A stretch of 59,786 bases of DNA, the filler included, from Dugesia japonica (lineage: Eukaryota): assembly GCA_001938525.1 (NCBI GenBank). It is 5 parts of 5 records of this genome, joined end to end, with 100 filler letters (N's around TTAATTAATTAA, not from the genome) between each part and the next. Parts side by side here need not be neighbours in the genome. Positions count along the whole stretch, not along the records: positions 20,619 to 32,909 come from MQRL01603017.1; 4 more parts are not named here. One strand, 5' to 3'. Each line of letters begins with the position of its first letter. The first letter of the stretch is position 1. The notes beneath the pieces are model-generated. The model made no database searches and was not told the origin of the DNA. It saw nothing but the letters and a program-made list of their open reading frames with translations. This document shows positions 4,901 to 50,817 of this stretch, piece by piece. The position numbers and the translations under genes were made by a program.

Positions 4901-7900
4901 TTGGGGTTTGAAAGAAAAATGTTCAAGTTAAACTAAATTCGAGCATTTAAATTTCAGTTTATACACAATTACAGTTGTGAGAATGATATTTGAATTTTTC
5001 GATTTCAAATTTATATGTGAAATTAAAATATTTATAAAGTTTTTGAAATTTAAAATATTTCAAGAAAATTATTAAAATAAATATTGCGTATATTTGTTTG
5101 AATATTAAAACTATTCTAATTCAGTTTTTTAATTTATAGAAACTTTGTCATAAATAAATGTTGGATAAAGATAGCGTTTTTCTTGCTAATATGGCAACCA
5201 CGTCAGGCTCAAATTTAGTGGTAGATTTGTTACGCCTGAAACCTTTCAAGTTANGTGACAATCTTGACAGATTCTTGAGGAACGTCTGTCGATTNTTCAA
5301 AGCGGCCCAAATTCCCAAAGATTTTCAAGACATTGTAATCGGTAAGATTATTGACCCGAATCTTGAAGAAAGATATGAAGCATCAGAAAACAAAGTAAAG
5401 GGATATGAACCTAGGCTACGACTACTGGTGGAAAGACCAAGAGACGTTTTTGAAGACCTAGAAGAATTCATTCGTTACAGACAGGGTGATGAATGTAACA
5501 GTTCAGAAACCAACAGGTTAAAGTCCGGCAGAAACGGTGTTTGGTAAAACATTCAGCAGAGAAAGATGGTTTCTACTTAGACAACTAGAGTTCGAGAAGG
5601 TAGACAATATACCGAAGGTTACGGACCCAACCAGGAGAATATTCGCTATTGGAGATTCAGTGCTTATCAAGGAGGAAACAAGAAATATGGATAATGATCG
5701 TTTTGTAGGTCTATTCTTATTAGTAAAAAATATACATGACCGAAGATATTTGATTCGAGATGATCTGGGTCGGACAATGGAAAGAAATATTGAAAAGATC
5801 AAAAGATGTCTTAAAGAAGGGGGATATGAGAATGATATTTGAATTCTTTGATTTCGAGTTTATATGCGCAATTAAAATTTTTATAAACTTTTTGAAATTT
5901 GAAATATTTCAAGAAAATTATTAAAATAATTATTGAATATTAAAACTATTCTAATTCAGTTTTTCAATTTATAGAAACTTTGTCATAAATAAATGTTGGA
6001 TGAAGATAGCGTGTTTCTTGCTAATAACGACCATTGCATTAACAATGTAAGAATTTCCAAAATGATCGATTGGCTGTGTTTATCTAACACATTGAAGACG
6101 AATCATGTTTTTTCACGTTTTTCTCACGTTTTTTTCAAACCGTTGGAGATGAGTCACATTTTTTTCACGTTTATTAGAATTTCAAGAAACAAAGTATAAA
6201 AACTACAATTATAAATAAATAAAATAGTATAACTAACAATTGTTTTTATAAGCAAATATGTGCATTATATAGTTGGATACTAAAAACTCCTTATATTCAA
6301 TTTATTAAAGAGAAAAGTAAGAGTATGTGAAAGTATTCGAGTAAATAGAGAACTACCATCAGATTTCAAATCAAAAGAACTAAAATTGAAACGATTTGAA
6401 ACGATCTTTAGAAGAAATAATGAAATTCTGCTACTTTCATGGAAGAATAAAAGATTAGTTCATATGAATTCAACAATTCATGAAGCTAGTACAATTGAAA
6501 AAAAATTTCGAAATTGTATTACAAAAACGAAGCCTATTTGTATCGACAGATATAATACTTTCATGAAAAGAGTGAATAGAGCGGATCAATATTTGTCTTA
6601 TTATTCAATACTCCATAAAACACTCAAGTATTCAAAAAAATAGTGTTTTGGATAATAAATTGCACACTGTTCAATTCATTCACAGTATAAAACAAGCTAA
6701 ATGGTACACAGAGAGTAAAATATAAGAAATCTTTACTGCAAGTTGCAAAATAATGAGCTAATAATGATTCTAGAAGAAGTCACAGATATGACACAAACTG
6801 TAACTTCTACAGTTAGCATTCATGCTGCTTTTTACGATCCACTAGGACGATTGCCTAGAAATATGCGATTACATGTTTTAGAGAAAACTGTATAGAAAAA
6901 GTGTATAGACAACAACGCGTTGTTGTTTTTGTANNNNNNNNNNNNNNNNNNNNNNNNNNNNNNNNNNNNNNNNNNNNNNNNNNNNNNNNNNNNNAAGTTT
7001 CTTTATTCAATAGCAATAACATTGTGTCACGATCATTACTGGTTAAATGAAAAAAAGATGCTTTCGAAGAAATTTACAATTGGAGAAAATATTTCTAATT
7101 ATATTACCGAATTCGAAAAAGTTGGCGAAGAACAAAAAATCGGGGATCCAACACAACGCTCAGAGAAGTTATTGAAAATTTTAGAAGAAGAAGAATATTT
7201 TGAACTCCAATCAATTTCAGAGTTTAAATCTAATAAATCAAATTATGAATGGCTGAAGACAAAGTTATTTTAATTATATCAAATCAGTATCTAACTGCCA
7301 TCGGAGTTGCTGGAATTCGGGGAATACCAGATTATGATGAATTTAATAGAGAAAAAACTCTCTTATCAATATTTTTGAAAGGGCTTAATAACCGTTTGGC
7401 AGCCAGAGCCACGGAAATTATGAAACCAAATATTCTGGAAGAAGCTTTTAATTTGATTAATAAGGAAGACAAAACTCGACATAATGGTAAATTGCGAATT
7501 ATTAACAATGATTTTAACACAGAAAAATGGCAAGAAATGTAAATCTTAAAACGGAGAATAATTGAGCTTGAAAAGTGTATAAAGAATATACAAAGAAACC
7601 ATGAAACAGATTCTCCAAAGTATGCAGTTCAAAAGATCAAACAAGAACTAAATGTTATCATTGCAATGGGAAAGGTTATATTGCTCGAAATTGTAATAAA
7701 CCATTGCTATGCAGAAACTGTAACACATTCGGACACATATCTCGATTTTTTCAAGCAGAAAAAAGTTCTAATATTCAGAAAGAAACTTTTCGAAGACTAG
7801 AAGAAACGATTGACAATTCGGATATTGAGTTTGATGAAGCCAGTTGTGATTATGAAAAGAAATCTGAAGATAATAATGAATTTTTCAAAATTGTTTCAAA

Positions 7901-10900
7901 AGGAAGGAAAATCGAAAGACAAAAGGAAACAAAAAGAAATATCAATTATCCAGACGATATTATTAAGTTGGATGAGTATATTCAAGGTTCAAGACACAAA
8001 TTTCTAATGAACAAACGACAAAGAACAATGATATCAGATACAAGAAGTGAATCCGCAGCAGATTATTTGACTGCCAATGTAGAAATTGACAAGATGAATT
8101 TTCAGAATAACTTTAAAAAACAAAGCGAGAGGATTACAGAAAGGAGAAAATAGATTCCAAAAGAAATGAAAGCAGAAAATCAGAATACTACATTATAGAA
8201 AGGAGATTGGGTAATGGTAAAAACAGAAGAGAGAGGGTTACTTTAAAAAGATATACAGGGCCGTGAATGGTAAGCAAGTTTCTCAGTAATGATAATTTAG
8301 AATTAGATGATGGAATGAAAGTAATTCGTCGAAATCTTCACCAAATAAAACGATTCAATGGAGAATTCGGAAATAAAAAAGAAATAATTGAAGAATCAAT
8401 CATTAGTACCGGTTCTAGGACAATTTCTTTCCGGACAATTTCCCTTGGATAATATCCCCCAGACAATATCCCCGGAAAATTATTTAATTATATAATTTCT
8501 TTTCAATTGCAAGTTATAATTATTACAAATAACTATTTATGACGAAATAATAAAAATTTTGAGGAAAGTAAAATATTTTTTTCTTTTCAATTCCAAGTTN
8601 NNNNNNNNNNNNNNNNNNNNNNNNNNNNNNNNNNNNNNNNNNNNNNNNNNNNNNNNNNNNNNNNNNNNNNNNNNNNNNNNNNNNNNNNNNNNNNNNNNNN
8701 NNNNNNNNNNNNNNNNNNNNNNNNNNNNNNNNNNNNNNNNNNNNNNNNNNNNNNNNNNNNNNNNAATAGTTTACTTGTAAGTTTAATTTTAAATATTAAT
8801 TAATATAATTATTTTTTTCAGATCATTATTAATTGAAATAATGGAATATATTATGTCCGAGAAAGGAAAAGAAAAACTTCTACTTGAAAAAATTCTTGCT
8901 AGAAATATGAGAGCAGTATTCTTGAATTGTAATAATCATAAGCGAAATTTGGCCGGAACACACTGGCTACATAAGATCCAGTCGTTATCACATTTCTGGA
9001 AATGCTCAAGCCATATATGCAATTTTTCTCGTTATACTATTCGATGGGGGATATTAAAACAAAAACTAAAGTTAACATTAAAGCAAGATTCAAAAATATG
9101 CTAGAGCACACAAACAGTTATTCATCAAGGACTGGATGAACTAGTAACCTTTTTGGAAGAATTATCAGAAGACCCAGAAACTTTAAGCGATGCAGCATAA
9201 TTGCTATCAAATATTTCCAATTTTTCGTTTTAGTAAATTTTTGGCACGTCATTTTGAAAGAAATTAATAGAAGTCAGATGCGTTTGCAAGATCCTACCAT
9301 AAATTTCAAAGAGGCAGCAACTGATTTTTAATCCCTGGAATCAAATCTAGACTATGTGATGACTTGTGTGATGATTCAATTAAATTAGTGAAATTGAGAT
9401 TCATAGATTGGGGAGTGAAAATAATTAAATTATTGAGAAAACGTCGAAAATTGTCTCGGGAACTATCGAACAATGTACAACTTTCAGTAAAGAGGAGATA
9501 TCACACGCAGTGAAAGGAGTGTTCGGTCTATTGTAGCTAGAAGTAATAAATCAATATTCCACGCTAAAAGACTAAAAAAATTTGAATTTTTGCTAGACTT
9601 CGAAGCACTCCTTTCCAAAAATATGAAAATAAATTCGCCAAAATTGCACAAATACAATCTTGGAATAATAGACGAATTCATTGTTGCCTAGACAAGACGA
9701 AGAAACAATACGAAAAGCTATTTCTGAAAAGTGAATATTGAAATTTAGATATCCAAGAGAGCTAAAACTGAATTTTGGAATAACCTTTGAATCAAGAGTT
9801 ATGGTAGAGTTTAAACAGAGGCTATATATTAAACTTTACTTTTCGAGTCCTTATTATTACAACACAAACGGACAAATCAAAAGACAGTTTAAGACAATTC
9901 GAGATTTAATTAATACCACACTTCATAAAAAAAGAACAATATATTTGGGAGACTTATTGCCGGAAATAGAATTTACTAACAAACCAGAAAACAACTAGAA
10001 AGAGCCCGGTTGAGATCATATTTAGAAAGAAAATTATGAGAGAAAAGTGGTTCGAATCAGAAGTTTCATAAAGAACAATAAGAAAAGATTTCAAAAGTAA
10101 CTACTAATATATTAGAATTCAAAATATTATACTGTATTATCATAAAGATAGAGACAAGAAATAAAAGCCAATGTATATTTGAAGGTACTTGTCGAATAAT
10201 TGAGAAAATTCATGAAAGACGTTAAGCGATACAAGAAGAAAGTGCAAAGCGATTGGAGAGAAATGTAGAAAACTTTTAAAGTTTCTTAAGAAGGAGATAT
10301 AAGGAAACAATGAATAAAATTAAAAAATAGTAAGGGATTAAAATAATTTATTAATGTGTTCAGTTCTACTTGCCATATATTTATTAACTTGGATATACAT
10401 TAATAGTGGATATAAATATTTTTGAAATTAATAGTTCTCATTTAGAAAATAAATTATCATTGGAATATTTACCTAGCATACATTATTATATATTATAATT
10501 TATACATAATTTAACACTTTCTTTAAACTGTCAATTATAATTTTCAATTTTAATCCTTGCAGGTATCATTCCTTACATGAGTAATTTATGATAAATTTTC
10601 TATTAAAAATACAGTTCTATATATGACATTGTCTTATACTTGCTAAATTAATGTATATGTTCACTAATTAAAATTAAATAAGTAAACAAATATAAAAACT
10701 CATGTATATATTTTAAATTTCTGAATTAATATATAACTACCCTAAACTGTTGGAAAAACTGTAATGGAACCATTTGTAGTTCATTAAAATTGTAAATTAA
10801 AATAAGTAAACATTTTACAAAACATTTTTACGGTAATACTATAATTTAGGTTCCTTGGGCTGGGAAAGTGGTTTACAAACTGGTGATATTATAAGAAGAG

Positions 10901-11253: not shown

Positions 11254-11353
11254 NNNNNNNNNNNNNNNNNNNNNNNNNNNNNNNNNNNNNNNNNNNNTTA
11301 ATTAATTAANNNNNNNNNNNNNNNNNNNNNNNNNNNNNNNNNNNNNNNNNNNN
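11254..11353. other. Artificial scaffolding linker N44-TTAATTAATTAA-N44 (also cores at 20563-20574, 32954-32965, 43992-44003)
   Basis: The same roughly 100-nt spacer occurs four times. The palindromic core has stops in all six frames. Confidence 0.95.
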
Positions 11354-17240: not shown

Positions 17241-19006
17241 AAATCGATTTTGTGTACGAAATTCAGTAAAAGTCAATTTTCTTCTGAACTGAGAAATTTT
17301 CTAGATTTTTATAATATATTAAATAAGAATAATGGATATTTTTGATTAATTCGCCGAGTTTATTTATTTTAATTTCGTTTAAATTTATTATCAAAACATT
17401 AAATTTTATTAATTTGTTACGCAAAACAATTAACAGAAGAAGAAAGAACAAACATCAAACCGTAAAGAAATTAATGCGTTAACTAGAAAATTCGAAAAGA
17501 AAATAAAACGTTTTACAACTACGGTGATCATTGGAAAACAAAATTTTCGATAAATTTAATCATAAATATAAGTATAACGAATTTCAAGCAAATGAACAAT
17601 GCACTCTATACACTGCATGATATTGTCTCAACATGAAATCCATTCTTCTGTTGAGGTTTTGAAATGTGGCTGGTGTAATAACTGAGATTCTTAAGAATGC
17701 AACAATATTGAAATAGTAAATTATTTCTTAATTGGTATTCTAATCAACCAATCAGAAGCAGTCTGTCACGCGTTTAAAACATGATGCTATAAATTGCACT
17801 TCTAAATTTAATTCGAATTGCCTCCTTGTATAATAAATGAAGCTTTAAATTTGGGAGAAAATTATAAAAATAAAAATGTAAAACGTATACCAAAAAGTGA
17901 CGCTTTAGAAAAATCAAGAGTTTTGCCTAATTAAAACAGAAAAATTGTTTGGAACTTAAGTTAAAACCCAATTAGAATTACCTATTACTGGGTGATGACT
18001 GGAAAAACCCTTACAAAGAATTCAAACTACTAAATTTATTGAATAACTGAATAAACCACCACTGGCTAAACTCATGAAGTGTCAGATTTGCAGTTAACTC
18101 ATATATAAAACGTTTAGTGAGACTTACCACAGAATCATCTTTAGAATTTTGCTACAAGTATTATTGGTATAATACAAGATGAAAAAATTAAAGAAAAATT
18201 TTGAGCAACAAAACTATGGGGTGTATTTAGAGAAGAAAAAAATGTAGAAATTAATGCTAGGAATTATTTGCAGATATTAGAATGTTTTGAAATATAATTT
18301 TCTGACAAGTAGTCAACTAGAAGGCTGAACTTGAATCTCATATAGGTTGTAAGGTATTCTATTTCAAAACGCTAATATTACCACGCGGAAATATTCCAAT
18401 TTATATAAAAGGAAGTGTATATTAATGATTTTAGAATTTCAATTAAAAACATTATTTAAAAATAACTTAGCAACCGCCGAAAATTAAAAGAAATTAATTT
18501 TGAAACTGGAAAATAAATTTCAAATTTTGGCAATTGAAATACAAAGAGAACTAAGTTGACAACCTGGAAAAAAGAAGATTTTAGCAAATAAAATAAATTA
18601 TACAATAAGGATAAAATCGGACCAGCACAAAAAAATGCGAATAATAAACCACTTGAAATCAAAATATGTAATTTGAGAAAACAATCAACTGAAACAGACG
18701 TGTTCTCTAATCAACAACACATAAAGAATTGAAAATCGAAATTAAAAAAATGCATTCGAGGACTTATTTAATTGAAACATTAGTATTTTAAGAATTAATT
18801 AAAGAAATAATTCCACTCAAGCAGTTGTATTCTCTAATAGAAGCCAAATTAATAGACGTTCGAGGAAAAGGTGCTGTTTCAAAAAATGTCGAAGTAAATA
18901 ATATTATTTTCCAATTACAATTATTGCGAGAATAATTGTTGGACAAAACCATTAATCGTTTTTCAGAATTCATTTAAAATAAAAACATTTTTTTGTTTTT
19001 GATAAT

Positions 19007-19041
19007 AATTCAAATTTTCGACTTTGTCTTCGTCAGGAATT
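19007..19041 (-). ncRNA. Minimal hammerhead ribozyme
   Basis: Minus strand reads AATTC-CTGACGA-a-GAC-aaa-GTC-GAAA-ATTT-GAATT; the core is intact. Confidence 0.8.
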
Positions 19042-19104
19042 GACTTTTTTTGATTAATTCAATATTTCCATTATAAACATAAATCTTGAATAAATCAAAA
19101 AACT

Positions 19105-19140
19105 GAATTCCTGATGAAGACAAAGTCAAAAATTAGAATT
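19105..19140 (+). ncRNA. Hammerhead ribozyme, probably inactive (GAAA changed to AAAA)
   Basis: GAATTC-CTGATGA-a-GAC-aaa-GTC-AAAA-ATTA-GAATT; catalytic G12 is replaced. Confidence 0.65.
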
Positions 19141-20449
19141 ATTATCAAAAACAAAAACAAAATTTTACTCGAAGCTTTTATTTTAATAAATAATATTTGG
19201 TTTTACAAACTTTNAACAAATTTTGTTGATCTTTGATTGACCTCATTATTATTTATTTACATATTCTTTGTCTTATCAGTCTTTGTAATTTATAAAACAT
19301 AAAATTTGCGGTGACTTTTTTGGGGCCATTAAACTCATAAATAATTGAATAATATAATATAAATTAGTAAAAGAAAAAGAATTAAATTATATGATTTTAG
19401 AAATCGAATTAACCTGTTCTTATTAAAACGAATCTATAAGAGTCATAAAAGGAGGCATAAGACCTGAACAGGAAGGAATTGTTTTACAATTACAATTATA
19501 TCGAGAATAATTTTTGGACATAACCATTGATCGTTTTACAGAATTCTTTGAAAATAAAAGCTTCAATCAAAATTGAATTATAAGAATTGGATTATAAATT
19601 TAACTTTTATTGTTATATTCAATGTCAAACAGAATATTTTGTTATTTACAATAATGGTTGTTCTACATATTAATAAAAAATTTTACAAATTTTGTGATAA
19701 AAATAAAGTTTTTAATCTATGTTAAATTCATTTTAAGAGGCTTTGTGATGATACTTTTGTAAGAATTCAATTACTAAAGAAAAATGAAATGATTTATTTA
19801 AACAATTAATAATAAAATTACACACATACATTGAAAATCAATTTTACTTATTTATCACTTAATTATTTGAGTTTTATTATAAAATATTAGGAGGTAATTA
19901 GTATTTATTTATTAAATACAAATGGAAATAATAAATATGTTTTATTTAAACAAAAAATCGGAAATTTGTTGAAATGTTGAATATTATTATAAATACATTT
20001 TTATTCAAAACGAAATAAAACATTATTTTAATAAAATATGCAAACTCGAAAAACAACATAGAAAAAATATATTTTTCTTTTATATTATTACAGAAGATAT
20101 TTTTCAAAGAAATACTTTAATTTGACAATTAATTTTTTATTCAATTAATAACATTATATAATTAACTTTCAAGGTATTTTCAATTATAAGGGTTTTTTTA
20201 TTTAAAAGAAACAATTTTTTATCAGGATTTTATGTGTGAAATATACGACACTTGATTGTGACACGATTGTTTTTTATTAAATTACAACTTTTTGTTTCAG
20301 AAGAATCAACAGCTGCATACTCACATTTGTAAACTTTTTCTCGTTTTGTTTGAATTTTTCGAAGTTACCTCATCAGGAAAAGTTATTTTGTAAATTATAT
20401 TTCATGTCTGTTGATATTAATTAATTGGAAATCATAAATGTATTATAAT

Positions 20450-20518: not shown

Positions 20519-20730
20519 NNNNNNNNNNNNNNNNNNNNNNNNNNNNNNNNNNNNNNNNNNNNTTAATTAATTAANNNNNNNNNNNNNNNNNNNNNNNNNN
20601 NNNNNNNNNNNNNNNNNNAATCGGAATAGAAAAGAGAAAGAAAAATAAATGAATTGGTTTTGTAGTCATATTTAGAGATAACCAATAATTACATTCCATT
20701 TAATGAAATGCAATTAATTATCGATTTTAG

Positions 20731-24639: not shown

Positions 24640-25511
24640 ATGAATCTCTAGAGCCTGCCAACTACTGAGGAGGAAGATGTGAAATTCTTTCAAGATCGTG
24701 GTATACTGTCAAAAGAACGAAGATGCAAGAACGACCATCTCATGAAGCTGAACACTGGCAAAGAAATCTTCTGAAAGTGCACACTCAGGGCCTGCTATAA
24801 GAAGATGAATATTCGCAACGGCAACTGGTTCGCTCAATCTCATCTTCCATTCGTTACTATCGCGCGTTTCATCTACATCTGGGCCTGGGAAATGACATCT
24901 GGGAAGCTGTGCAAGAGGGAGCTCGGGATCAACAAGGACACAAAAATAGATTGGAGTAACTATCTGAGGCAAGCATGCATGGAGAATCTACTTGCAAAGT
25001 ATCAAAGACAAATAGGCAGGATGATCGTGGAAATTGATGAGTCACTTTTCACCAAGCGCAAAAACAATGCCGGTCGGGTGCTACCTCAACGATGGATCTT
25101 TGGAGGGATATGCCGCAAAACCAAGGAATGCTTTCTCATCGAAGAGCCAAATCGAAGTGTGCTTCTCTGCTGACTGCAATCAAGGAGAACATTCCCGAGG
25201 AGACCATCATCTACTCAGACAGCTGGAAGGCCTACAAGACACAAGAAATGGAGCAAGCTGGATTTAAACATTTCAGGATCAACCATCGTTACAATTTTGT
25301 AGATGCCGAGACAGGCGCACACACTCAAACCGTGGAAAGGATGTGGGGATCAGCAAAATGGAGGAATAAAAAGCACAGAAGCACCGATCATCACTTCCTG
25401 AAGTCTTACTTGGCCGAGTCCATGTGAAGAAGCAGTATTGACGAAGAGAATTCGTTAGATGCTATTCTGGATGAGATGAAGAATCGTTGGCCGCCTGCTA
25501 TTAGAGAATGA
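24640..25511 (+). mobile_element. Merlin (ISXO2/IS1595-like) DDE transposase pseudogene
   Basis: N-terminal zinc-ribbon cysteines, IVEIDESLFTKRKNNAGR, WIFGGICR, IIYSDSWKAY, H..INHRYNFVD..TGAHTQTVERMW. It carries three in-frame stops and one frameshift. Confidence 0.92.
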
Positions 25512-26394
25512 TTGTTCTAATGTTTGTTTCTATTGTTTATTGTATGATTTGGAATAAAAAAAATTTAAAAAAATTGTAAAATAAAAATATAAAAATAAAT
25601 ACTGTCATTTTATCTCCAACTTACCCCAGTAGTCCTGTCAGCTTTTCAGGAATTGTTAGATACAAAATCCGAAACACCATATACAGATCTTCGGGAAGCT
25701 ATAATCAACAGTAGCAAACTAACGACCTCTTATTATATAGATAAAAAGTTTCTACTCTTACCTCTTGGAGATCAAAGACTGTTAGATCGTCTTCGACAAT
25801 TACGGAGACACTTCCAAGAGATAGAACTTAATTAAAAAATNNNNNNNNNNNNNATGCTATTAAGAGATGCATTTATAAGAGCAATACCTCAAAATATCAA
25901 GCCTCATCTCGTCTCTAAGGAAAACTGCTCATTGATAGAACTGTTGGGGTGAAACACCCGGTCGGTAAATAAAACTTGGAGCCAAGGGCCCAAATCATAA
26001 AATAATGAAGAAGGGGGTTGAAAAAAAAATATTGATTAGGAATACGTATCTTTTGGCTAAAGATTATAATTATTATACTAATAAAAAAGATCAGATGAAT
26101 GAATTCAACCCTCATCAATTTCAATAATTAAGGAAAACTATAATTTATTAAGAAGAAACAAGAAAATTATTATTGAAAATAATAATAAATAAGCAAGAAA
26201 AAAATTAATTAATTTTAGCCAAAAAAATAAGTTAAACTAGACGAAAATTGGTTTTTGAAGGATATCTTTGCTCTAGAAAATTGCAAGAGATTCTAGCAAG
26301 AAAATCTGAGGAGGAAATGATATGGGGCAATAGGATTTTCTAACAAGAATATCCAACCAGCAACAGAAGGCCCGCTAAAGGGGTTGGAAGAATA

Positions 26395-26632
26395 GGCCAA
26401 TAATGGGCCAGAAAAGAAAAATAAAACAAAGCCCTGAAAAAAAACGAGGTGTCCTAAAAATAGGAACCAATGATTGTTGAAAAACTCTTAGAAAAATCAG
26501 AAAATTGGCGCAAGTACCAATGAAAAATAAGAAATTCAAAACAAAAATAGAAGGCCAATGGCGATTGTGCCGAGTTCTAAAGGGAAAGGTGTATAAACCC
26601 CCCGAAATTTAGAAGAAATCATCATCATTTTC
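26395..26632 (+). promoter_or_regulatory. Pol II promoter inside the insertion (4x CCAAT, TATA, Inr)
   Basis: CCAAT at 26397, 26467, 26517 and 26555; TATAAA at 26592; TCATT initiator-like motif about 30 nt downstream. Confidence 0.7.
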
Positions 26633-26970
26633 TCAATTTTGCTAATATAGGCACATTGTGTTACTATTATAACTAATTTTGGAGAACGATTTACAAGAAC
26701 TATTAATAATCGATTGTAAGCTCACAATTGTTAAATCACTTTACTAACCGTATCTATTTCGGAATTACAGAAGAGGAAAACTTTGGTCAATAATAAGAAG
26801 GGAATTGAACAGGAAAAACTATCATTCAAGTTTAACTGACATTGTTTCGCATTCTTAAAGAATAAACCGTTGCAGAAATTTCTACCTTATCAGTGAGTAT
26901 TAGTTGTTATTTCATGATATTAAATGATGATATCTTGCATTCATAATAAATATGTTTAATATTTTAGATC

Positions 26971-27155
26971 ATGCCGGTGGAACTACGAAATACCTTGCGC
27001 GTGATTCTAAGGCAACGCAGGTCAGCTCGTCAAAAACAATTAATAGGCCGACTACTATTTCAAGAATTGGTAGAACATCCCGAAAAACTGATTTACAGTG
27101 CTTCGTCGAGATGTTCCCGTTAAGATACAATGTGAACATCGACCAGGGAGATTAG
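26971..27155 (+). pseudogene. LTR cargo ORF1 (MPVELRNTLRVILRQRR..., probable frameshift)
   Basis: ATG lies 3 nt after the acceptor ending at 26967 of intron GTGAGT...TTTTAG (26893-26967); the region is GC-richer than its flanks. Confidence 0.5.
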
Positions 27156-27316
27156 TTGCTGATGCAAAACCTCGATTGTTTATTCATTTGTCGTAATTTC
27201 GTTAAAATACATAATAACCCAATGATTTTATTTCATATTTAATTAGTTGGAATTTTCCCCTTTATTGTTTTTTTAAAATTTTCTTTGATTAAGTAATGAG
27301 GTTTATTTATTTGTAG

Positions 27317-27736
27317 TGAACCATAATTGGGAAGTGATACATGAAAGGACCACCGGCCGGATGATATTCAAAAAATATCTCAACACGTATTATCGCGATG
27401 CCAGAATTTTAACAGAGCGGTCAAACCTGCCTGCGAATGTTGCTTACGAAGAAAGACTGATGGACGCCACTGATCGACAAGCATATTATCACTAGACCGG
27501 ACCTGATTGCAGTCATGCACGTTTTCCGTCAGAATCGTATCCACAGACTAAGTAAATGGTATGCCAATTTATGAGTGGGTCTGGAGAGAAAACACCTCCC
27601 TCCGCTTGAACCCGTCCTCATTCCGATAGGGCTAGGAGGAATAATCCGGGATACGCACTGCATTGTCCGAAATACTTCGAGTGGAGCTAATGATGAAAAC
27701 ATTGAATTACCCACGGATAGTGTACTATCTCCATAG
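27317..27736 (+). pseudogene. LTR cargo ORF2 (M/NHNWEVIHERTTGRMIFKKY..., disrupted)
   Basis: Acceptor TTGTAG|TG; open for 59 codons in the A|TG frame, then coding-like sequence continues in another frame. Confidence 0.5.
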
Positions 27737-27937
27737 TCGCGAAGTTTATCATTTTTATCTTTCTTAGTGTTTTTTAATAAAATGTTTTGGCTGTAGATAT
27801 TTGATTCATCAACTAATCATTTATTCGTTTATTGGTTGAATTCACTTCAGATTAAAATAATTTTTAGAATGCTTTGTTCACTCATATTCAATTTCTCTGA
27901 CTTTATAATCCATGATTAATTTAAATTCGAATACTAG

Positions 27938-28288
27938 TGCATTCTTCTATAAACCGCTCTGTCGCTCCAACCAAAAAAATAAGAGAAACCAGCGAAGATT
28001 TAGAGATGACGTGGGACCTATACCATCTTGCTAAGCGCCACTGAGAGGCGGACACTGCAACAGCAGAAAGTAAAGTAAAGAGGTATAAGGTCAAATGCAT
28101 TGCGTTCCGTAAAGAGGTTGATGCCTCACACGCACAAAAACGCTTGTAGTACACAAGTAGAATGTTTCGCGGAGAACATTCGATCCCTCCATGACCGTGA
28201 GAATAAACTGGTAACTGATATAATCAAACTTTGGGAACACATGCTACTGGAGCCTCTCATGGTGGATAAACCAACCCAAACTACATGA
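27938..28288 (+). pseudogene. LTR cargo ORF3 (M/HSSINRSVAPTKKIRE..., coiled-coil-like, disrupted)
   Basis: Acceptor ACTAG|TG; a premature stop and a frameshift are needed to reach the ...KLWEHMLLEPLMVDKPTQTT* end. Confidence 0.45.
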
Positions 28289-28442
28289 TCTTAAGATGTT
28301 GTGTTTTGTATAAATAAAACTGTTATTTATAATTTTAATCATGGGTCCTCTCCTACTCTTTTCTTTTATAGTAAGAAAAAATACGAATTTTGAATTGCTT
28401 TTAATTGACAGTAAAATTTCAACTTAATTATTTCTATTATAG

Positions 28443-28804
28443 TGCTGAGAATCAGACTTCCCACCAGTTTACGGCGCTGCCACCAACNTATTCAAAAATT
28501 GTTACTTGAGCGCCATATCAAGCGACAAAACGAACGCNNACTCCTACGACATCTTACCCAGCGCAACCGGTTGATTAAGAAATTAGATGTCATAGTCAAA
28601 AAACAAGACGAGTTAGCCGAACAAAAAAAACAAGTGCTCCAGCACAAAATCGAATTTCTAGAACAATATATTGCCGACCCGACTAGTCGCCTCGAGCAAG
28701 AGGCGTGGACTCGCTGGAATAGCGAGGATTATGAAGTCACTTTTGATTTCATGTCTATAGAGCCAACCCAGTGGTTAGACCCGGGTGCTCTCGATTACAT
28801 GTAG
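28443..28804 (+). CDS. LTR cargo ORF4, 120-aa coiled-coil protein of unknown family
   Basis: Acceptor TTATAG|TG; the ORF is uninterrupted but has no genomic ATG near its start. AATAAA follows at about 28812 and 28850. Confidence 0.6.
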
Positions 28805-29511
28805 ATAATTAAAAATAAATATTAATATTAGTGAATTCTTAGTTACTTTAATAAAAACAAAGAAGGGAAAATAATGAATCCACACCAAAGATACACGAGT
28901 AAGTACTCCAAATAAGCGTTGGGAGTCAACCGCTCCGTACTGAAGATCTAATCAGGGACATTAGGTAAATTCTTGAACGGGTCCTCTGAGGGCTGTTTTT
29001 TCCACAGCCAACTTGTTCTATCACAAACTCAGGTGGGACCCTAACAGAACTAAGAAAATTGGCTAACAGACCTGAGCAAATCAAATTTTTATAAGATGTA
29101 CACAGCATCTCGATTCAAACAATTACAAGCGGAGTATAGCAACTACGAGATGAAATAAATCAACTTAACATGGTTTATGCACAATATCAACAGATGGAAC
29201 TTGCAATTGCCAACACAAATATGGAAAATCAACCAGAAAATGCCGGGAACCATGTGATTGGAATTTTAAACAAACACAAGAAAATGAAAAAGGTTCTCAA
29301 TAATTACGGTGATTGAGAACCCTATCACTGCTGAACCGAAACTCATCTCTACAATATTCANTGTTCCCTGTTCTAATCGACACAGGAGCAGATGTCAGTA
29401 TTTTACCAGCCAAACCATTTCACATCAATTATTGTGAAACGACCAAACAACTCATTTCAGCTGGCGGTAACACAATTCCAACTCGGGGACAACGCACTTT
29501 GTACTTTAACA

Positions 29512-29695
29512 TTGTTGTAGAATGGATTAAATCGTTAAATGAGAAGATAACGATTAGAAATGAAATTTGTTCAAGCTGGATATTCAAACGTATTTTGGAA
29601 ATTAATTTCAAAATAACTGAAGTCAGCAATATCAGTAGACTTTCGGGAAGTAGTTTCATTCCAACACCAAAAAAATTCTAAATAAAAAGAAATAC
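29512..29695 (+). mobile_element. Fragment resembling a Maverick/Polinton-type DNA-polymerase-associated ORF
   Basis: SSWIFKRILEINFKITE...LSGSSFIPTPKKF resembles the GSGW...GSSYIPLP motif as I recall it. Confidence 0.45.
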
Positions 29696-29699
29696 AAGC

Positions 29700-30105
29700 A
29701 AGCAGCTTGTAGACAAACTTACACATCTGAACATAAGAAGAACAGATCCTTCAAAATCTTTGTAATAGGTTCCTGTATCAAAAATAGCTAACCTAGTCTA
29801 ACTACCTGGCAGAAATTTATTTCGCTTCTAATCCCGAAACCAGATAAGGAAGACTACACTAAACTAAATAACTGGAGACCGATCGGCCTTCTCAAAACGG
29901 TGTACGAAATTTTCACCACCTGACTCACAAACAAACTTCAGACATTGATATTCTGTCAGAAACTCCAACACAGAAACAGGAACAGTTCAGGCGAATTTGA
30001 AGGATGCATTGAGCATAACTTTGCTCAATCATATTTTATTAAAAATGCAAAGTTAATGAAAGCTACTTTCCACATAGCTTTCCTTGATATAATTGATGCA
30101 TTTTT
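29700..30105 (+). mobile_element. Non-LTR retrotransposon RT fragment (NeSL/R2-like)
   Basis: TWQKFISLLIPKPDKEDYTKLNNWRPIGLLKTVY...EGCIEHNF...AFLDIIDAF. Confidence 0.8.
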
Positions 30106-33100
30106 TCTGATTTTTCAGTATTTTCTCTCGATTATTGGAATTGCAATTTGCTAAATTCAGAACAACAATATGTTGAAAATATTAATAGAATAACAACATA
30201 GATTTATCAATTCAAAACTAAGATTATTTAATTGGTTAAATAATTGCGATAATTTAGTTAAAAGTTAGACTGAAATAATCGAATAATTATCACCTTTTAC
30301 TGAGTCCAGACCTTCTAGTGCCATAATAACAAATTTAAGAAGATGTGCAGAATTTCCAGTGTTTTCTCTCGATTTCATTTGCAAAACGCACTGGCACATA
30401 ACATTCAATACTATTTTCTGCATACAGAGCTCGGTGTAATTTACAACTTAGCAAAACTTCATGATGTTATGCATGTAATTGTTTTTCAATTAAATTATCC
30501 CTATGAAATCACAAGAGAAACACTTAAAATTCAGCACTACCAAGTTTATATAAATGCTGTCAGATCTCAAGTAATATCTTTTCCCACTTAACTTCTTGAA
30601 ATAAGTCTTCAAAAATTCCCAAAAATTCAAGTGGACATTTACTGTCTCAGAAACTAATTGGGATCAGACTTCTTCAGATATAATGGCATCATAATAGGCT
30701 GTCAACGGAATCAAATTATTCTCAAAAACAATACAGTGCAAGGATCGCGAAATAATGATAATTCCCATAGAACAGTGCACAATTATATGCTATACCACAA
30801 ACCAGAACTTTGAATCATGACAACTGGTCCACCTATATCTCAAAAACCTCGAAGAAACATCGCATTTGGAGCAAGTCTGAATCACGAAGTCAACGACAAA
30901 CTTGCTCCCATAGCATTTTTCTAAAGAAAATTAAACAAGGCAGAACAAATATATTCAATGTTTGATCGTGAACTTTGAGCCATATATCTATCCAACAAGA
31001 ATTTCAAGCATTACTTAGAAGTTTGCGAATTCACAATTTTAACAGATCACAAGCCACTACTATACATTCAATCAATGAAAAACCCAACAAACAGGCAATG
31101 GCGTCATATTGAGTTTATCAGTCAGTTCTCATTTCAGCTCAAGTACGTGAAAGGATCAGAAAACGTTGCAGCTGATTTCTTATCAAGAATTCCAGAAAAC
31201 ATTCTGAAGCCAAAATATTTTCAATAAAAAAGGATGAATTGTTCAAAGAACAACAATAAGACTCTTCACTCATACAATGTCACTCACTAAAAATAAAGAA
31301 GCTTGACGGAATCTTGACAAAGATTTTGCTACCCACGAGGTACACAAAGACTGATATTGAGAGATTTCACAATATTGCGCATCCATGGGCCAAGAAAACA
31401 ACAGATCTAATTTGAGCTCGTTACGTTTGTGCAAAGATGAAATCGGACATTCGAGAATAGACAAGGCAATGCAACAGATGTCAATCACAAAGAATTACAC
31501 GTCATTCGCAATATTCACTTAAACTTCTTACAGAATTAGGACGGTTCAAAGTGATGTACATGGATATTGTCGGAACTCTACATTAATGTGAAGGAAAGTG
31601 ATTCATTCTGACGATGATCGGTCGTTAAACATCTTGGCCTGAGGCCATACCAGTAAATAATTAACAACAAAAGCTATTTTAGATACGGTTGAAAAAGTGT
31701 GGATCAGTAGATTTGGCCCACCGGAGATCATGATCAAGTAAGACAATTTATATCAAATCAATTTAAAGAAATGTGCAAGAGATACGTAATTGATCACAGC
31801 AACACAACAGAATACCACCTACAATGTAACGGTAAAAGCGAGAGACTTCATCGAAGCCTAAAAAAATGCTATTCGAACACATAGTACAACTGCAGAACGG
31901 AGATGGTCCATTGACTTGCCTATAGTCATGCTTGNNNNNNNNNNNNNNNNNNNNNNNNNNNNNNNNNNNNNNNNNNNNNNNNNNCTGCAGAACGGAGATG
32001 GTCCATTGACTTGCCTATAGTCATGCTTGGACTAAGAAATGCAACAATTACAAAGCAATAAGCATCACCAGCGCAACTCGTCTATGGTTCTTAAACTCGC
32101 CTCCCGGAGACATCATTCTGACCACATGGAAATTTCCATTACGAAAGAAAATTTCCAGGCTGCAATACAAAGACTCGGGAGAACAAAGCCACACAATATT
32201 ACAAAAAGAACCATCTTCATTCCATCTGCTCTAAAAAATTGCAAACAATATGGCTCTGTGCACCCAATCTAACAAGCCTGAAATCACAATACGAATGATT
32301 ATGTCGTATAATCCAAATGAGTACAGATTAAAAGAAATTTGAAATTGACATCGATGGAATTAGAAAAACGGTATCAATTGACAGGCTGAAACCAACATTC
32401 ACTTATTGCCGGGTATTATGTAATATGACTTTTAATCATATTATATTTTAAATTAAATATATACTTTAAACAAATTCATTTTTTAATTTTAATTTTAATA
32501 AATATTGCCATTTTGTCTTTTATTTATGGTCTTTAAAAAGTACGAACTCAACAAGGAGCTATATCGATGATGAGTGTTAATATATTGAAAATCTTAAATG
32601 ATAGTCATAGTTATAAGCTGATAATTGATGGAAAATATAAATCAATGGCGACTAAGATAAGTAAAAAGAATATTCATAATGGTAACGATAACTGAAGGTA
32701 CAGAGTCATAGTGGATATAAAATGATTGGATGAAAATGATTGAACAAACCTGGACCAATAAAGGGTTAAAAACTACTTTGTTATGCATTAGAGGAGAGAA
32801 AGATGTTGGGATTGAGCCCACCACAAATTGAATTAGAAATGTGAATTAGAAGACATGAGAAAATTATATCAAGAAATGGTGGATAGACAACAAGAAAGAG
32901 AAGACTTTGNNNNNNNNNNNNNNNNNNNNNNNNNNNNNNNNNNNNNNNNNNNNTTAATTAATTAANNNNNNNNNNNNNNNNNNNNNNNNNNNNNNNNNNN
33001 NNNNNNNNNGATGAGACAGACTTGATATTTTGCAAGGTATGAGGCAGTGAAAAATTCATATTCTTAAATAGAAATAAAACATTTATAATTTTCAAATACA

Positions 33101-34019
33101 GAGTATAAATATTCAATAAATTGCCTAAATTTATTTAAAATTTGTATTTATTAATTTTCTTAATATTCTTAACTTGAAATAAACTTAATTAACAGAGAAT
33201 TTGTGCCGAATAAAGTTGAAAAATTGAAGAAATTCAATCATTTTTAATTCACTGCAAATAATCACTGAACAATCTAAATTATAATTATTTTGTAATTTAA
33301 AATCTTTTTAAATTTTTCAAGTAATAAACAATTTAAAATTAATTTGAAGAAAGTTTATACGATCAAAATATATTCAAAACAAACAATCACTCAAAAAATC
33401 AATATATAATTTTAAACTATTTTATCTCAATAATATTCAGTTATTTCTAATGAGAAAATAAAAATTTTTAAAAAATGTTACGAAAATATTTTAGAAAAAT
33501 ATTAATTTTAAAGTTTCAATATTATATGTATTTCATTAATATTTTTACAATATGGATTCTTAATTTATTTTAAAATTTTTATTAATTAATAAACAATTTT
33601 TTTTAATTTTTAATGTAAATTAAAACATAACTTTTTTGAAGATTACTGCTTTTAAATAAATAAATTAATTTCATATTCTTAAATAGCAATACAATAAATC
33701 GTTATTCACAGCAGAATTAAGAGTTATTTTTTAATTTATTTTTAAAATTCATTAACGAAGATTAACAATATTTGATAAAGAATTTTCATTTCATAAAAAT
33801 CATTTTAAAAACTGTTTAATTTTTTTTAATTATTTTCCTTTGAAAAATATATTTTTAAAATTTAAAATAAATTTTTTTTCTCTTTCAGAAATTTAAATTA
33901 AAATATTTTTAAATAATTTTTGAAAATTTAATTGAATACATTATCATGAAAACAANNNNNNNNNNNNNNNNNNNNNNNNNNNNNNNNNNNNNNNNNNNNN
34001 NNNNATTTAAAAAATTATA

Positions 34020-34619
34020 ATGGATATTGTCAATTTCCATAGTAACGACTTTATGAATTGTAAATATCAAAACAAATCTTATTCAGAATCCTCAAATATT
34101 AGATATTCTAAATGTAAAGCATTCGGTAGATCAGATCATTTTTGTGATAAATATAAAGTTAAAAAGATATTTGTAAATATGAAATTGACTGGATTATTAG
34201 CTGAAGAAACAAATATGTATAAAGGTGTAAAGATTATTTATAATGAACCAGCAGAAGCTCATCTATCATCGGAATATTGGGGTTTATATACATTTAAAGG
34301 TGATGAATCGTTACCAACTATTCATCTTCACCGACAAAGTGCCTTTTTAATTGGAAAACACAAAGATATCTGTGAAATCTTCATGGCTCATCCAAGTATT
34401 AGTAAACAACATGCAGTAATTCAATTTAGGAACATGGACGATTGCGTTAAACCATATATTATTGATTTAAAATCAACTAACGGTACATTTATTAACGGTA
34501 TCNNNNNNNNNNNNNNNNNNNNNNNNNNNNNNNNNNNNAAAGACGTTTTGAAATTCGGATTTTCATGTCGTGAATATGTTTTACTAACAGATAAATCAGT
34601 AAATTCAGATCGACAATAA
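34020..34619 (+). CDS. SNIP1: SNIP1/Pml1-like FHA-domain protein (intronless)
   Basis: LTGLLAEETNMYKGVKIIYNEPAEA...LYTFKGDESLP..HLHRQSAFLIG...HPSISKQHAVIQFR...KPYIIDLKSTNGTFING...DVLKFGFSCREYVLL. The duplicate at 34729-34977 fills the gap with QIEAQKYYELQE. Confidence 0.9.
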   Translation: MDIVNFHSNDFMNCKYQNKSYSESSNIRYSKCKAFGRSDHFCDKYKVKKIFVNMKLTGLLAEETNMYKGVKIIYNEPAEAHLSSEYWGLYTFKGDESLPTIHLHRQSAFLIGKHKDICEIFMAHPSISKQHAVIQFRNMDDCVKPYIIDLKSTNGTFINGIXXXXXXXXXXXXKDVLKFGFSCREYVLLTDKSVNSDRQ

Positions 34620-36840: not shown

Positions 36841-38312
36841 ATAACGTATTTATATTTGATAATATATCGCTTATATAATATCGTATTNNNNNNNNNNNNN
36901 NNNNNNNNNNNNNNNNNNNNNNNNNNNNNNNNNNNNNNNNNNNNNNNNNNNNNNNNNNNNNNNNNNNNNNNNNNNNNNNNGCGCTAAAATAAAATTGGAG
37001 TAAGACGATTTTTGTTAGTAACCTTCACCCACGAGGAAATAACAATAGTCAAAAATTGAAAGCTACCTCCGTAGAATCGAAATTCTTAAAATGTCATCTC
37101 AAAAACCAAGGATTCTATCTTAAATCAACGATATATAAAATATAGAGAATTTAATCCTCTACCTTTTTGAGTATAGGATTTTCAGTACTATCCCGTTTTA
37201 AAAACTTCAAAGGGGAATGTATTACACCGGCACACCAAATCGAAATTTGAAGNNNNNNNNNNNNNNNNNNNNNNNNNNNNNNNNNNNNNNNNNNNNNNNN
37301 NNGATACAACATATAACGTATTTATATTTGATAATATATCGCTTATATAATATCGTATTGACATACAAGAGAAACAATTAAAATCAAACACCAAATAAAC
37401 TCAGTTACGAATATTATTTAATACGAACCATTATAGAATTCCTTTTATCTANGCGCTAAAATAAAATTGGAGTAAGACGATTTTTGTTAGTAACCTTCAC
37501 CCACGAGGAAATAACAATAGTCAAAAATTGAAAGCTACCTCCGTAGAATCGAAATTCTTAAAATGTCATCTCAAAAACCAAGGATTCTATCTTAAATCAA
37601 CGATATATAAAATATAGAGAATTTAATCCTCTACCTTTTTGAGTATAGGATTTTCAGTACTATCCCGTTTTAAAAACTTCAAAGGGGAATGTATTACACC
37701 GGCACACCAAATCGAAATTTGAAGAAGACACAGGTTCTTAGAATTAAATTATATGTCCAAAGTTGAATTTCCTACCACCTTTCCATTGGCGGCCAAGGGA
37801 TAGGTGGGCTAATAGTAGTCCTTTAAGTCATGTAAAGGTACTTTTTGATTTTAGGAGTAATGGAATCGGTTTCGACTTGAAAAAATTAAAATTTGAAAGA
37901 ACACTTCACTGTGACGAAACACAAAATATTTAATTCAATAATTAGGTCTGTCATCACGTTACGAATCCAACGATACCAAATTTTATTTAATTAAAACAAA
38001 AATGATTACAAAAATCCGTTTTCAAAATTTTAAAAAAAAGTATAAGAAAGTTTTTAGCCCACTATCTAACGACTTATTCTAAACAGATTAAAAACCCAAC
38101 TCTGCAATCGCAAACATGAAAAAAATTACATCATAGATAATTTTCTAACATATTTCTATTTAATTTTTGTTGTACATTATTATCATTTTACCAACAGATT
38201 GAAAATACCAATCAAATATTATCATTATAAGTCATTATAATTATGACTACAAAATTTAATAAATCCAAATCAAAAACAAAAAACTGGGTTTTTTCTATAA
38301 TTCTAATTTAAA

Positions 38313-43730: not shown

Positions 43731-45196
43731 TTCTTTTCTTTTTTATAATTAGACACTCTTATCCTGATAATTAGATAAACTACTATTTTTTCCAGATTGG
43801 AAATAAAAAAAAATTTTCCAAAGGCTATTGATAATTTTGCTAAAGTTATTTTTAATTTTGAATCTCTAAAAATTTTTTAATACTTAGGTTGTTATCACAA
43901 TGAATTATCATTTTAATTACAACTTGGTTTAGTAATTCATTTTTAACNNNNNNNNNNNNNNNNNNNNNNNNNNNNNNNNNNNNNNNNNNNNTTAATTAAT
44001 TAANNNNNNNNNNNNNNNNNNNNNNNNNNNNNNNNNNNNNNNNNNNNAATTATTTACTCATAAATTAAATTGAATACTTTTTATAGATTCTGAAAATTAT
44101 TGAAATGATTAACTATTTATTAAATAAATTATGAAAAAACAATTTTAAATAATAAATAAAAATTTGAAAGTATTGTAGAAATGTTCATTTAAAATTCCAT
44201 GTTAAAATTAAATTTTAAATTATTCAGTTATTTATTAATAGAAAATAGTACACTCAATTCTCTTTGTATGCGGTAGATGCGTTCCATGGAAATTTGCATT
44301 TACAAAATTCGCGTAAAAATACATACATTTAAATACAAAATAATAGATACGTTCTATTTACTCAAAACTTCGCATAATAGCCAAATAATTACTTAAAATG
44401 CAACAAAATTTGCATAAAACGAAAGAAACATTCTGAAAAATGATGAAAAATTACTCGAAATATTGGAGAACCTTTAAAGTAATATAAATGGATCTAAATA
44501 TTATTGAATTCATTCGATCATAATGAATCATATAATGAGACCTCGGTTTCATTTTCAGCAAGAAAAAATATTTTCATAAAAATAAAACGTAACTCAAAAT
44601 TTATCAAAATTGGTATCAATTAATAGAGAGATTTGCGCTGATTCCGAATATCATCATTTAATATCATCAAACTTTATATGACTTCGGAAAAATCTAAAAA
44701 ACCAAAGGGAAAAAGAAGTCATCCATCGCAGTATTCGAACCGACTACTGAATTTTCGGAAGAATTTAGATAATATGCGTTTTTTCAATTCTCTGTCGTTT
44801 GGTATAGGTTTAAAGTCAATAAGTTAAAAAGTCGATAATTTGAAATATTAACCACTAAAAAATTTTTAAAAATATATTAAAAAACAACATTTTAATCAAA
44901 GCTTTTTATTTAATGAAATCCCAAATACAATTAGTGATTAAGTCCAATAATTCTTGTAATTGTTCAATTATTCAGATTGAATTTTTAACTCGATAAGTAA
45001 TGTCCACCCTTTTATTACGCATCTAACGATACCAAATTCGATTAGAAAGTTCAATATTTACTTTCTATTTATCCTCCAAAAGTTTTTTTTATTTTGATGA
45101 AATTGATCTTCTTTATTTTTCTTTATCAAGAGTGAAAAAATATATTTTTCTAGTCAAATTTTTTCAAATAATTATTCGTAATCATTTTAAAATATT

Positions 45197-45425
45197 TTTA
45201 CAATTGCAATTATTGCGAGAATAAATTTTGGACATAACCATTGATCGTTTTATAGAATTCATTTAAAATAAAAGCTTCAATCTAAAATTTTTTTTTGTTT
45301 TTTGAGATTGTTTCGATATTTCGACTTTGTCTTCGTCAGGAATTCGAAAGCCGAAATATTGAATCACTCTCAAAAAACAAAATATAATAATTTTTGGTCG
45401 AAGCTTTTATTTTAAATGAATTCTA
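45197..45425. repeat. Second palindromic Penelope pLTR pair
   Basis: An inverted arrangement around 45345, with a hammerhead on the minus strand and a truncated hammerhead tail (CGAAATATTGAAT) on the plus strand. Confidence 0.75.
45311..45345 (-). ncRNA. Minimal hammerhead ribozyme
   Basis: Minus strand reads GAATTC-CTGACGA-a-GAC-aaa-GTC-GAAA-TATC-GAA; the core is intact and the cleavage triplet is AUC. Confidence 0.75.
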
Positions 45426-47985: not shown

Positions 47986-48621
47986 AAAATAAACATACTA
48001 ATTAACATGAAATCTCAAATTTTATCAGTTGGTTGAGTTCAACAATTATTCTCGCAATAATTGTAATCGTAATAAAAAATTATTATTAATTTATTGACAA
48101 ACGAACTATTGGGTCAATTTCTTTATTTATTTTAATTTAATCCAACATCGAAATACAAAATCTACCTGATTTTAAAATTTAAAAAACAATTCGAAAAGAA
48201 GATATTTACTAAAATATCTGAAAACCATGTGACAATAGCAATGAAAGCCAATCATAAAATAATGAGTCGAATCTTGGATCAAATTATAACAATGATTAAT
48301 TGGGTAGTAAAAATTCAAAAATATGATCTGATACCATGAAACCGAAAGAGTAGGAAGAACTAATTAATTGTTTTCACTAATTTAACTGTTAATTAATAAA
48401 AATTTCTATATCTACCTTACTCAGAAAATTACTGAAATTTTATTCATTGATAATTTGAGGCAGGAATATTGACTGATTGTCAGATTGATTATTTATTTAT
48501 TTATTGATAAATCAGTATATTTATAAATAAATCAATAATCTGCAAAAGTGTATTTAATGTAGAAATTAAAATTAAATTTATTTTAACTGAGAATATTTTT
48601 ATTATAAAATTGTTGGTTTAG

Positions 48622-50620: not shown

Positions 50621-50817
50621 AAATATTTTATAAATTATTTACTGCAATATCACATGAGTTTTTTNNNNNNNNNNNNNNNNNNNNNNNNNNNNNAATTCTA
50701 TACCTGAAATTTCTTATTTATCTGCAATCTCTTCTTTTATTATGTGAATTTCATTTAAAATACTTTTCTCTTAAAAAAATATAGTTGTTATTTTCTTTTT
50801 CTTTTCATCGATTTTTA

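Follow-up and report, generated by a model that had tools for sequence, protein, structure and literature searches.

A probable solo long terminal repeat in Dugesia japonica with a predicted shared-leader accessory-gene unit

The DNA analysed here (hereafter the window) is a stretch of 59,786 nucleotides from the planarian Dugesia japonica (GCA_001938525.1), made of five parts of five records joined end to end. On its plus strand, which also carries every feature of the insertion and of its host element described below, an insertion of 3105 bp occupies positions 25942-29046 within the gag of an older Gypsy-type element. We read it, on balance, as a solo long terminal repeat (LTR), the remnant that recombination left of a large Gypsy-type retrotransposon once inserted there, and as holding a predicted unit of accessory genes with one shared leader. 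A first-pass annotation had supposed that every solo LTR of this kind would be a self-contained expression unit for its cargo open reading frames (ORFs). The sequence argues for this idea and refines it to one leader, four cassettes (C1 to C4) and separate polyadenylation (polyA) signals.

Boundaries and nature of the insertion

The insertion begins with TGTTGGGGT and ends with ACCCTAACA. Its termini read TGTT...AACA, and the tetranucleotide GAAC stands on either side as a target-site duplication (25938-25941 and 29047-29050), as the letters and their codon phase indicate. The short inverted repeat at the 5′ end (25942-25950) matches TGTTRNR and that at the 3′ end (29038-29046) matches YNYAACA, so that both ends agree with the LTR integrase consensus TGTTRNR...YNYAACA given in the accessible part of one review (PMC3601003). 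Eight of the nine terminal bases are complementary, which bears out the TG...CA termini and the 9-bp imperfect inverted repeat of the first-pass annotation; the match extends to 10 of 14 and 11 of 20 bases and is at chance level beyond that. A comparison of the 300 bases at either end found no longer inverted or direct terminal repeat (local scores of 21 and 24 against a mean of 20.5 and a maximum of 33 in shuffles). We rejected the termini and the duplication as sole proof of the boundaries: the window contains seven such end pairs with a 4-bp duplication (589 candidate pairs), and shuffled sequences yield a mean of 4.2.

Proof of the boundaries comes from gag relatives without an interruption, in which the site is empty. 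In DNA run X1, 24 contigs, and in run X4, 21 contigs, depart at 25942 and, by eye, continue without a gap in agreement with 29052-29081 at 24 of 30 places; they stem from other gag copies, and X1 or X4 is possibly related to the data behind the window. Thus, the insertion is real and its ends are precise. The same contigs confirm the 4-bp duplication named earlier, and they place the limits of the element at 25942-29046, inside the span first given (25938-29050), which had located the element correctly but had taken in both copies of GAAC. Exact restoration of the gag frame had also been claimed. The junction is in frame, since both GAAC copies have the same codon phase in the flanks, but the host gag is decayed and the right flank stays open for 15 codons only. 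A duplication of 4 bp lies within the range of 4 to 6 bp seen in Metaviridae.

That the insertion is an LTR, across all readings that make it one, is quite probable. It has TG...CA ends with a short inverted repeat, a 4-bp duplication with precise ends and no gag-pol between them, and promoter motifs are followed by AATAAA on the same strand at the motif level. The longest plus-strand ORF in the insertion has 129 aa, and Pfam found no transposase, reverse transcriptase (RT) or other retroelement family in eight cargo pieces. TRIM and LARD elements consist of terminal direct repeats around a non-coding core; both were rejected, as the insertion lacks terminal direct repeats. Among 18 listed of 530 loose contig ends, none lies before the 5′ end.

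Leader, cassettes and the split start codon

The first part of the insertion is an A-rich region (25942-26624, 46% A) that resembles the unique 3′ region (U3) of an LTR and is common to many diverged relatives; bins there have a summed contig depth of 175 to 2400, compared with about 10 in places where this copy is alone. TATAAA at 26592 lies in a TATA-like box (26590-26597) that, by motif and contigs, has one difference from the relatives; an initiator-like (Inr-like) TCATT follows at 26625, and AATAAA occurs at 28814 and 28850. These motifs stand as first annotated, with a promoter about 650 bp in and polyA signals about 200 bp from the end, but the AATAAA copies that directly follow two inner cassettes (27776 after C2 and 28313 after C3) were missing from that account. 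A leader exon is predicted at 26625-26892, both its start and its splice being predictions; it runs from the Inr-like start to a last base A before the donor GTGAGT at 26893. Its 268 nt contain no ATG, where 4.7 would be expected (P(0)=0.006).

Four GC-richer cassettes follow, each after an AT-rich spacer (20-24% GC). C1 (26968-27155; acceptor 26967) has its own ATG at 26971 and about 60 codons with an Arg-rich start; its frame breaks near 27083, at an indel relative to the relatives. C2 (27317-27736; acceptor AG|TG, 27316) comprises about 140 codons, with a frame break near 27480-27495 and a stop at 27572, and C3 (27938-28288; acceptor AG|TG, 27937) about 115 codons, with a stop at 28042 and a frame break near 28147. 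C4 (28443-28804; acceptor AG|TG, 28442) has 119 open codons, three unknown bases included, and precedes the AATAAA pair at 28814 and 28850. In the present copy, therefore, C1, C2 and C3 are broken by stops or frame breaks, and C4 is open. The 3′ tail (28805-29046) would correspond to the end of the repeat region (R) and the unique 5′ region (U5). Within the last 150 bases of the insertion, after the final AATAAA, stands a GT...AG pair (28899-29007) with a textbook donor GTAAGT and a T-rich CAG acceptor, which could act as a donor for transcripts entering the internal region or in polyA suppression in a 5′ LTR. The predicted RNA fold of 28850-29046 was no better than that of shuffled sequences (z = -1.5, not significant).

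The acceptors of C2, C3 and C4 share a feature that would tie them to the leader. Each reads AG|TG, and the TG occupies codon positions 2 and 3 of the open frame of its cassette, with 58, 34 and 119 codons following. Since the leader ends in A, joining it to TG would give ATG, so that C2, C3 and C4 would acquire their start codon through splicing; we infer this from the letters at the predicted joints. A rule for acceptors, which asks for YAG with AT-rich and T-rich sequence before it and GC-richer sequence after it, selects 26967, 27316 and 27937 within the element, and 28442, skipped for an N, satisfies the same thresholds. By the same rule, AG|TG occurs at three of the four element acceptors but at only 2 of 30 sites elsewhere on both strands, those two being one duplicated stretch; a looser rule gives TG at 11 of 283 background sites. 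The chance of finding TG at three of four acceptors is P ~2e-4, an optimistic value in which the frame match is not counted. A trans-spliced flatworm leader ending in AUG was ruled out as the source of the start, as AUG followed by TG is out of frame with the cassettes.

Under this model, a single promoter would yield the ATG-free leader, which would be alternatively spliced to one of the four acceptors. The choice of acceptor would pick the protein, and the transcript would likely end at the polyA signal of the chosen cassette. The proteins of C2, C3 and C4 would be made only from spliced RNA because the A of the leader completes their start codon; on unspliced RNA, they could not begin at these sites. 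The same promoter would also give unspliced RNA that runs past the inner polyA signals and acts as the genome, with R and U5 together spanning about 2.4 kb. In terminal exons, polyA use is coupled to the upstream acceptor, and such coupling is the likely reason for the read-through. As the spacers contain 12 ATGs, gag too would likely be reached by splicing of the leader. Intact solo LTRs would then express cassette proteins without gag-pol.

How the relatives are distributed points to selection on the cassettes. Over the centre (26700-27930), contigs show zero to two differences at a depth of about 10, and the exact copy is therefore apparently single. Contigs of diverged relatives (mostly 88-95% alike) accumulate over the first 700 bases and at three spikes, one in C1 (27086-27173; depth 4209 in X1 and 2160 in X4) and two in C3 (27966-28053, 1107, and 28142-28229, 10596, both in X1). 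Summed contig depth is not a copy number and allows rough estimates only, by which the relatives of the insertion number roughly tens to about a thousand, and those of two cassette motifs, as the depth suggests, hundreds to about a thousand. The family is therefore large and diversified, and the insertion is one of its old members. The relatives' depth has a median of 97.5 in 11 mostly-cassette bins against 14.5 in 8 mostly-spacer bins in X1 (p=0.0003), and of 47.5 against 18.5 in X4 (p=0.012), with two leader bins (26646-26821) omitted. Furthermore, 17 of the 31 listed distinct differences within cassettes fall on third codon positions (p=0.011); for the first part of C3, the share is 10 of 14. 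Together, these patterns point to selection on the cassettes as small proteins. Contigs of relatives also skip parts of the spacer after C2 (27737-27872) and of the U3-like region (26030-26592), one contig each; such joints imply that spacer and U3 vary in length among subfamilies.

To judge by analogy and by composition, the cassettes likely encode soluble proteins that regulate the transcription of the element itself or the fate of its RNA: C1 is Arg-rich, C4 has a helix and an acidic tail, and no cassette piece contains a transmembrane-like segment (maximum 19-residue hydropathy 1.3). A fusogen-like product was rejected, as there is no hydrophobic segment. For the last 87 residues of C4, a single-sequence structure model gives a 44-residue helix (predicted local distance difference test, pLDDT, about 90), a short helix and a low-confidence, presumably disordered acidic tail. 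No homologue of C4 was found among 5.8 billion proteins of 66-210 aa, 1.84 billion representatives or the PDB, and a search with the second part of C3 against proteins of 110-2000 aa gave none. Pfam gave sub-cut-off matches of coiled-coil type for C4 only among the eight cargo pieces, and no match for a ninth. The best Atlas values, 0.88 (C4) and 0.92 (first part of C2), have recognition below 2300 and belong to unnamed clusters in both cases; they are leads only. There was no second copy and no cargo homologue elsewhere in the window. A metagenome scan left two loci of 173 candidates, one a chance match in a prokaryote-like contig and the other at 36%, and viral contigs gave no related locus. 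These protein blanks carry little weight, as a neighbouring SNIP1-like host gene also reaches at most 58% (proteins of at least 190 aa searched), the genome being apparently poorly represented.

RNA evidence and rival readings

RNA was searched in polyA-selected runs (X10, X12 and X13), about a quarter of each. At 88% identity, 43 reads came from X10 and one from X13; at 80%, 38 came from X10 and 36 from X12. Reads from relatives cover C1 and C3, with the first mate mostly on the minus strand. Reads also lie upstream of and across the TATA box, as expected of a 3′ LTR in a full-length transcript and equally of a host intron. No pile-up of transcript starts or ends was seen in the comparisons of DNA contigs and RNA, in which reads were too few. 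Splicing of the leader to the cassettes is thus a prediction from motifs and reading frames.

Several observations weigh against a solo LTR with a shared-leader unit. Only one of 117 reads from X10 and X12 (X10 counted twice) is 99% alike; the RNA signal therefore comes from relatives, and the present copy is nearly silent in these samples. No leader-to-cassette joint was listed, although RNA depth is zero at 26820-27014 in four runs, which leaves this negative without power. Unspliced RNA is present at two acceptors: at 28442, two contigs, from runs guessed to be RNA, begin 19 bases before the acceptor, and at 27937, three reads align from 27918, which lies upstream of it. The acceptor thresholds were chosen after the sites were seen, which is why the P value is optimistic, and the T tract of acceptor 27937 is weak. 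C1 is followed by near matches to AATAAA and by no canonical one. In its second part, C3 shows only a weak third-position bias (6 of 14), the differences counted come from the 40 of 126 and 40 of 81 rows that were listed, and the protein searches gave no homologue that would assign a function to a cassette. As for the LTR itself, paired copies, a primer-binding site and a polypurine tract were not seen, no reads span the 3′ end, and a 4-bp duplication is also compatible with Ginger. Much of this would suit a solo LTR in which the cassettes are separate captured gene pieces or neutral relics, with AG|TG and the ATG-free leader arising by chance and without any shared-leader unit: no spliced joint is seen, RNA is unspliced at two acceptors, the copy is broken and nearly silent, and the thresholds are post hoc. 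However, this reading has to accommodate in-frame AG|TG at three of four acceptors against 2 of 30, a leader free of ATG, and third-position bias together with conservation peaks over the cassettes, and we regard it as improbable.

Two further explanations keep the cassettes and change their setting. The insertion might be a non-autonomous, gene-carrying DNA element with 9-bp ends, moved in trans by a Gypsy-like integrase or a Ginger-type transposase; its introns would then persist without an RNA step and need no special explanation. TGT ends, a 4-bp duplication and introns are indeed traits of Ginger in the accessible text of PMC2836005, and the want of paired copies fits as well. However, the same text gives terminal inverted repeats (TIRs) of about 40-270 bp and CCGG/CCGT duplications for Ginger1, and TIRs of about 50-180 bp with a preferred RTATAY target for Ginger2. 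Far shorter, the match here reaches 8 of 9 bases before falling to chance, the duplication is GAAC, the site is not RTATAY, and Pfam found no transposase; a Gypsy-integrase-like transposase, as in autonomous copies of Ginger1 and Ginger2, is absent from the cargo pieces scanned, a state with which a non-autonomous copy is compatible. We therefore rejected Ginger1 and Ginger2/Tdd, in line with the first-pass annotation, which had held the absence of long TIRs and of a transposase against Ginger, and we consider a DNA element of this kind unlikely. The solo LTR first proposed remains the best fit, since the ends match the LTR consensus and the features of Ginger and TRIM fail. The length of R is a separate matter. 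Values of 0.68, 2.2 and 0.2 kb had been given for U3, R and U5, and under the assumptions made the arithmetic is right (683, 2209-2251 and 171 bases), but a long R is not forced, and only an R plus U5 of about 2.4 kb follows if 26625 starts the genomic RNA. The end of R is not fixed because AATAAA also follows two inner cassettes, which makes three sets of signals possible. One of the inner polyA signals could mark the border between R and U5; alternatively, R could be short and U3 contain the genes, if there is a second promoter close to the 3′ end. In one arrangement of this second kind, the cassettes of the solo LTR lie under an accessory promoter within a U3 of 2.9 kb, and genomic RNA starts from the second promoter near 28810-28850, with an R of tens of bases and a U5 of about 170 bases. 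This would spare the read-through of three polyA signals and a strong-stop DNA of 2.4 kb, and the stretch 28805-28898 resembles the U3-like region in being rich in A. The R regions known are short: those of the retroviruses listed in the accessible part of PMC3601003 measure 11-150 bp, so that an R of 2.2 kb would be exceptional. However, 28805-28900 contains neither TATAAA nor TCAKTY, and the sole clear TATA/Inr pair stands at 26590-26629; a short R of this form is a minor possibility. Given an LTR, an R of about 2.2 kb stands at about even odds.

Surroundings and known systems

The host element is decayed on both sides of the insertion. Its left flank (25599-25941), where the relatives' depth is 6740 in X1 and 2758 in X4, is gag-like by eye from its pattern, and the Pfam search gave no match there. 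Its continuation (29047-32400) holds the end of gag and, by Pfam, pieces of protease, RNase H and integrase of Gypsy type (RVP, E 0.003; RT_RNaseH, E 9e-10; rve, E 0.019; SH3_11, E 0.08). The host gag is broken at other places besides the insertion. An apparent foreign stretch (29500-30600) lies within the host pol between protease and RNase H, in which we take 29792-29920 to be non-LTR-RT-like and about 29520-29680 to be Polinton-polymerase-like, both by eye from their patterns; Pfam gave neither match. Directly left of the host gag, at 24640-25430, lies a decayed relic of an IS1595/ISXO2-like (Merlin-type) DDE transposase (PF12762, E 2e-9). Rfam gave no match over 25400-32600.

Elsewhere in the window, an ORF of 182 aa (7605-8153) has a weak zinc-knuckle match (zf-CCHC, E 0.007) and is perhaps a further gag relic. 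The SNIP1-like ORF with an FHA domain (34011-34619) contains an N gap and is apparently intronless here; its best matches are 50-58% identical and come from eukaryotes, mostly animals. A dispersed family resembling miniature inverted-repeat transposable elements, with inverted arms of about 50-70 bp, occurs at 18897-19167, 45188-45425, 48030-48084 and 50808-50944. The 100-base gaps at 11254-11353, 20519-20618, 32910-33009 and 43948-44047, each with a 12-base all-frame-stop spacer, are artefact and not biology, and perfect direct repeats beside N gaps (e.g., 36980-37724) look like assembly duplications.

LTRs usually pass for non-coding blocks of promoter and terminator, and a solo LTR for a dead end. 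If the shared-leader model is true, an invertebrate Gypsy-type lineage has evolved accessory genes like those of complex retroviruses within its LTR, with splicing as the on-switch via the start codon. The genome would also hold a large unannotated source of small proteins, missed by ordinary ORF finders because three of the four cassettes have no ATG in DNA. Reverse transcription would face the question of how 2.4 kb of R and U5 with introns and inner polyA signals is copied. More tentatively, and here we are doubtful, the giant-LTR family as a whole may be a widespread, operon-like multi-gene unit, with a leader donating the A of ATG to alternative acceptors, the splice choice deciding which of several new regulatory micro-proteins is made, an array in a record R of about 2.2 kb, and the many solo LTRs serving as dispersed, selected micro-protein genes without gag-pol. 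The model names exact splice joints, and hence it is directly testable.

Functional parallels also lie outside this lineage. The accessory genes of complex retroviruses, the LTR genes sag of mouse mammary tumour virus (MMTV) and nef of human immunodeficiency virus (HIV), and the shared late leader of adenovirus combine a common leader, alternative acceptors or polyA sites, and small regulatory proteins. In contrast to these systems, the insertion belongs to a genome of invertebrate type and would hold four genes in one repeat, and no sequence kinship with them was found.

Among giant Gypsy-like elements, planarian Burro/GYPSM1 has an internal region of up to 25 kb and a total length above 30 kb, which implies multi-kb LTRs, and a polyprotein of about 4,900 aa (PMC6431247, accessible part). 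The insertion, likened to it by description only, shares the multi-kb LTR, the rich accessory coding and the AT-rich animal genome; in contrast, the accessory domains of Burro/GYPSM1 belong to the internal polyprotein or to an ORF upstream, and that part of the paper mentions no LTR genes. Very long TG...CA LTRs are also known from the plant elements Ogre and Diaspora. The LTR of Ogre measures 1.9-6.5 kb (PMC6431247, same part), but its extra ORFs are internal, whereas four cassettes with signs of selection stand between the ends here. For Diaspora, the accessible text of PMC1142308 reports predicted splice donors inside the LTR and a 5′ untranslated region that is exceptionally long unless spliced; unlike here, it describes no ORF in the LTR.

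In Drosophila, the MDG1 group (412, Mdg1, Stalker and Blood) carries sORF1 and sORF2 ahead of gag. Directly behind sORF1, whose product is nuclear, lies an alternative polyA site at which a short transcript ends (PMC11952523, accessible part). Small accessory ORFs and an early polyA site are thus common to both. Unlike the unit proposed here, the MDG1 transcripts are unspliced and hold two ORFs, and sORF2 is a membrane fusogen, whereas the cassettes have no strong hydrophobic segment. A precedent in Gypsy-type elements for a splice-made start codon is the env of insect endogenous retroviruses of the springer subclade, in which an upstream exon gives AU (PMC12992720, accessible part). There, one gene downstream of pol is served; here, one leader would give A to three acceptors in a terminal repeat. 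In the literature, we found no LTR described as containing an array of several spliced genes, the main Burro papers, Repbase reports and supplements lying outside that search and possibly holding such a description; the accessible parts of PMC8532177, PMC11410931, PMC13465017, PMC13238120 and bioRxiv 10.64898/2026.01.28.702291 contain nothing on LTR structure. Multi-kb LTRs, accessory ORFs with early polyA sites, splice-completed starts and donors within long LTRs are thus already known singly. What would be new is their combination: four cassettes, and a shared leader giving the A of three start codons.

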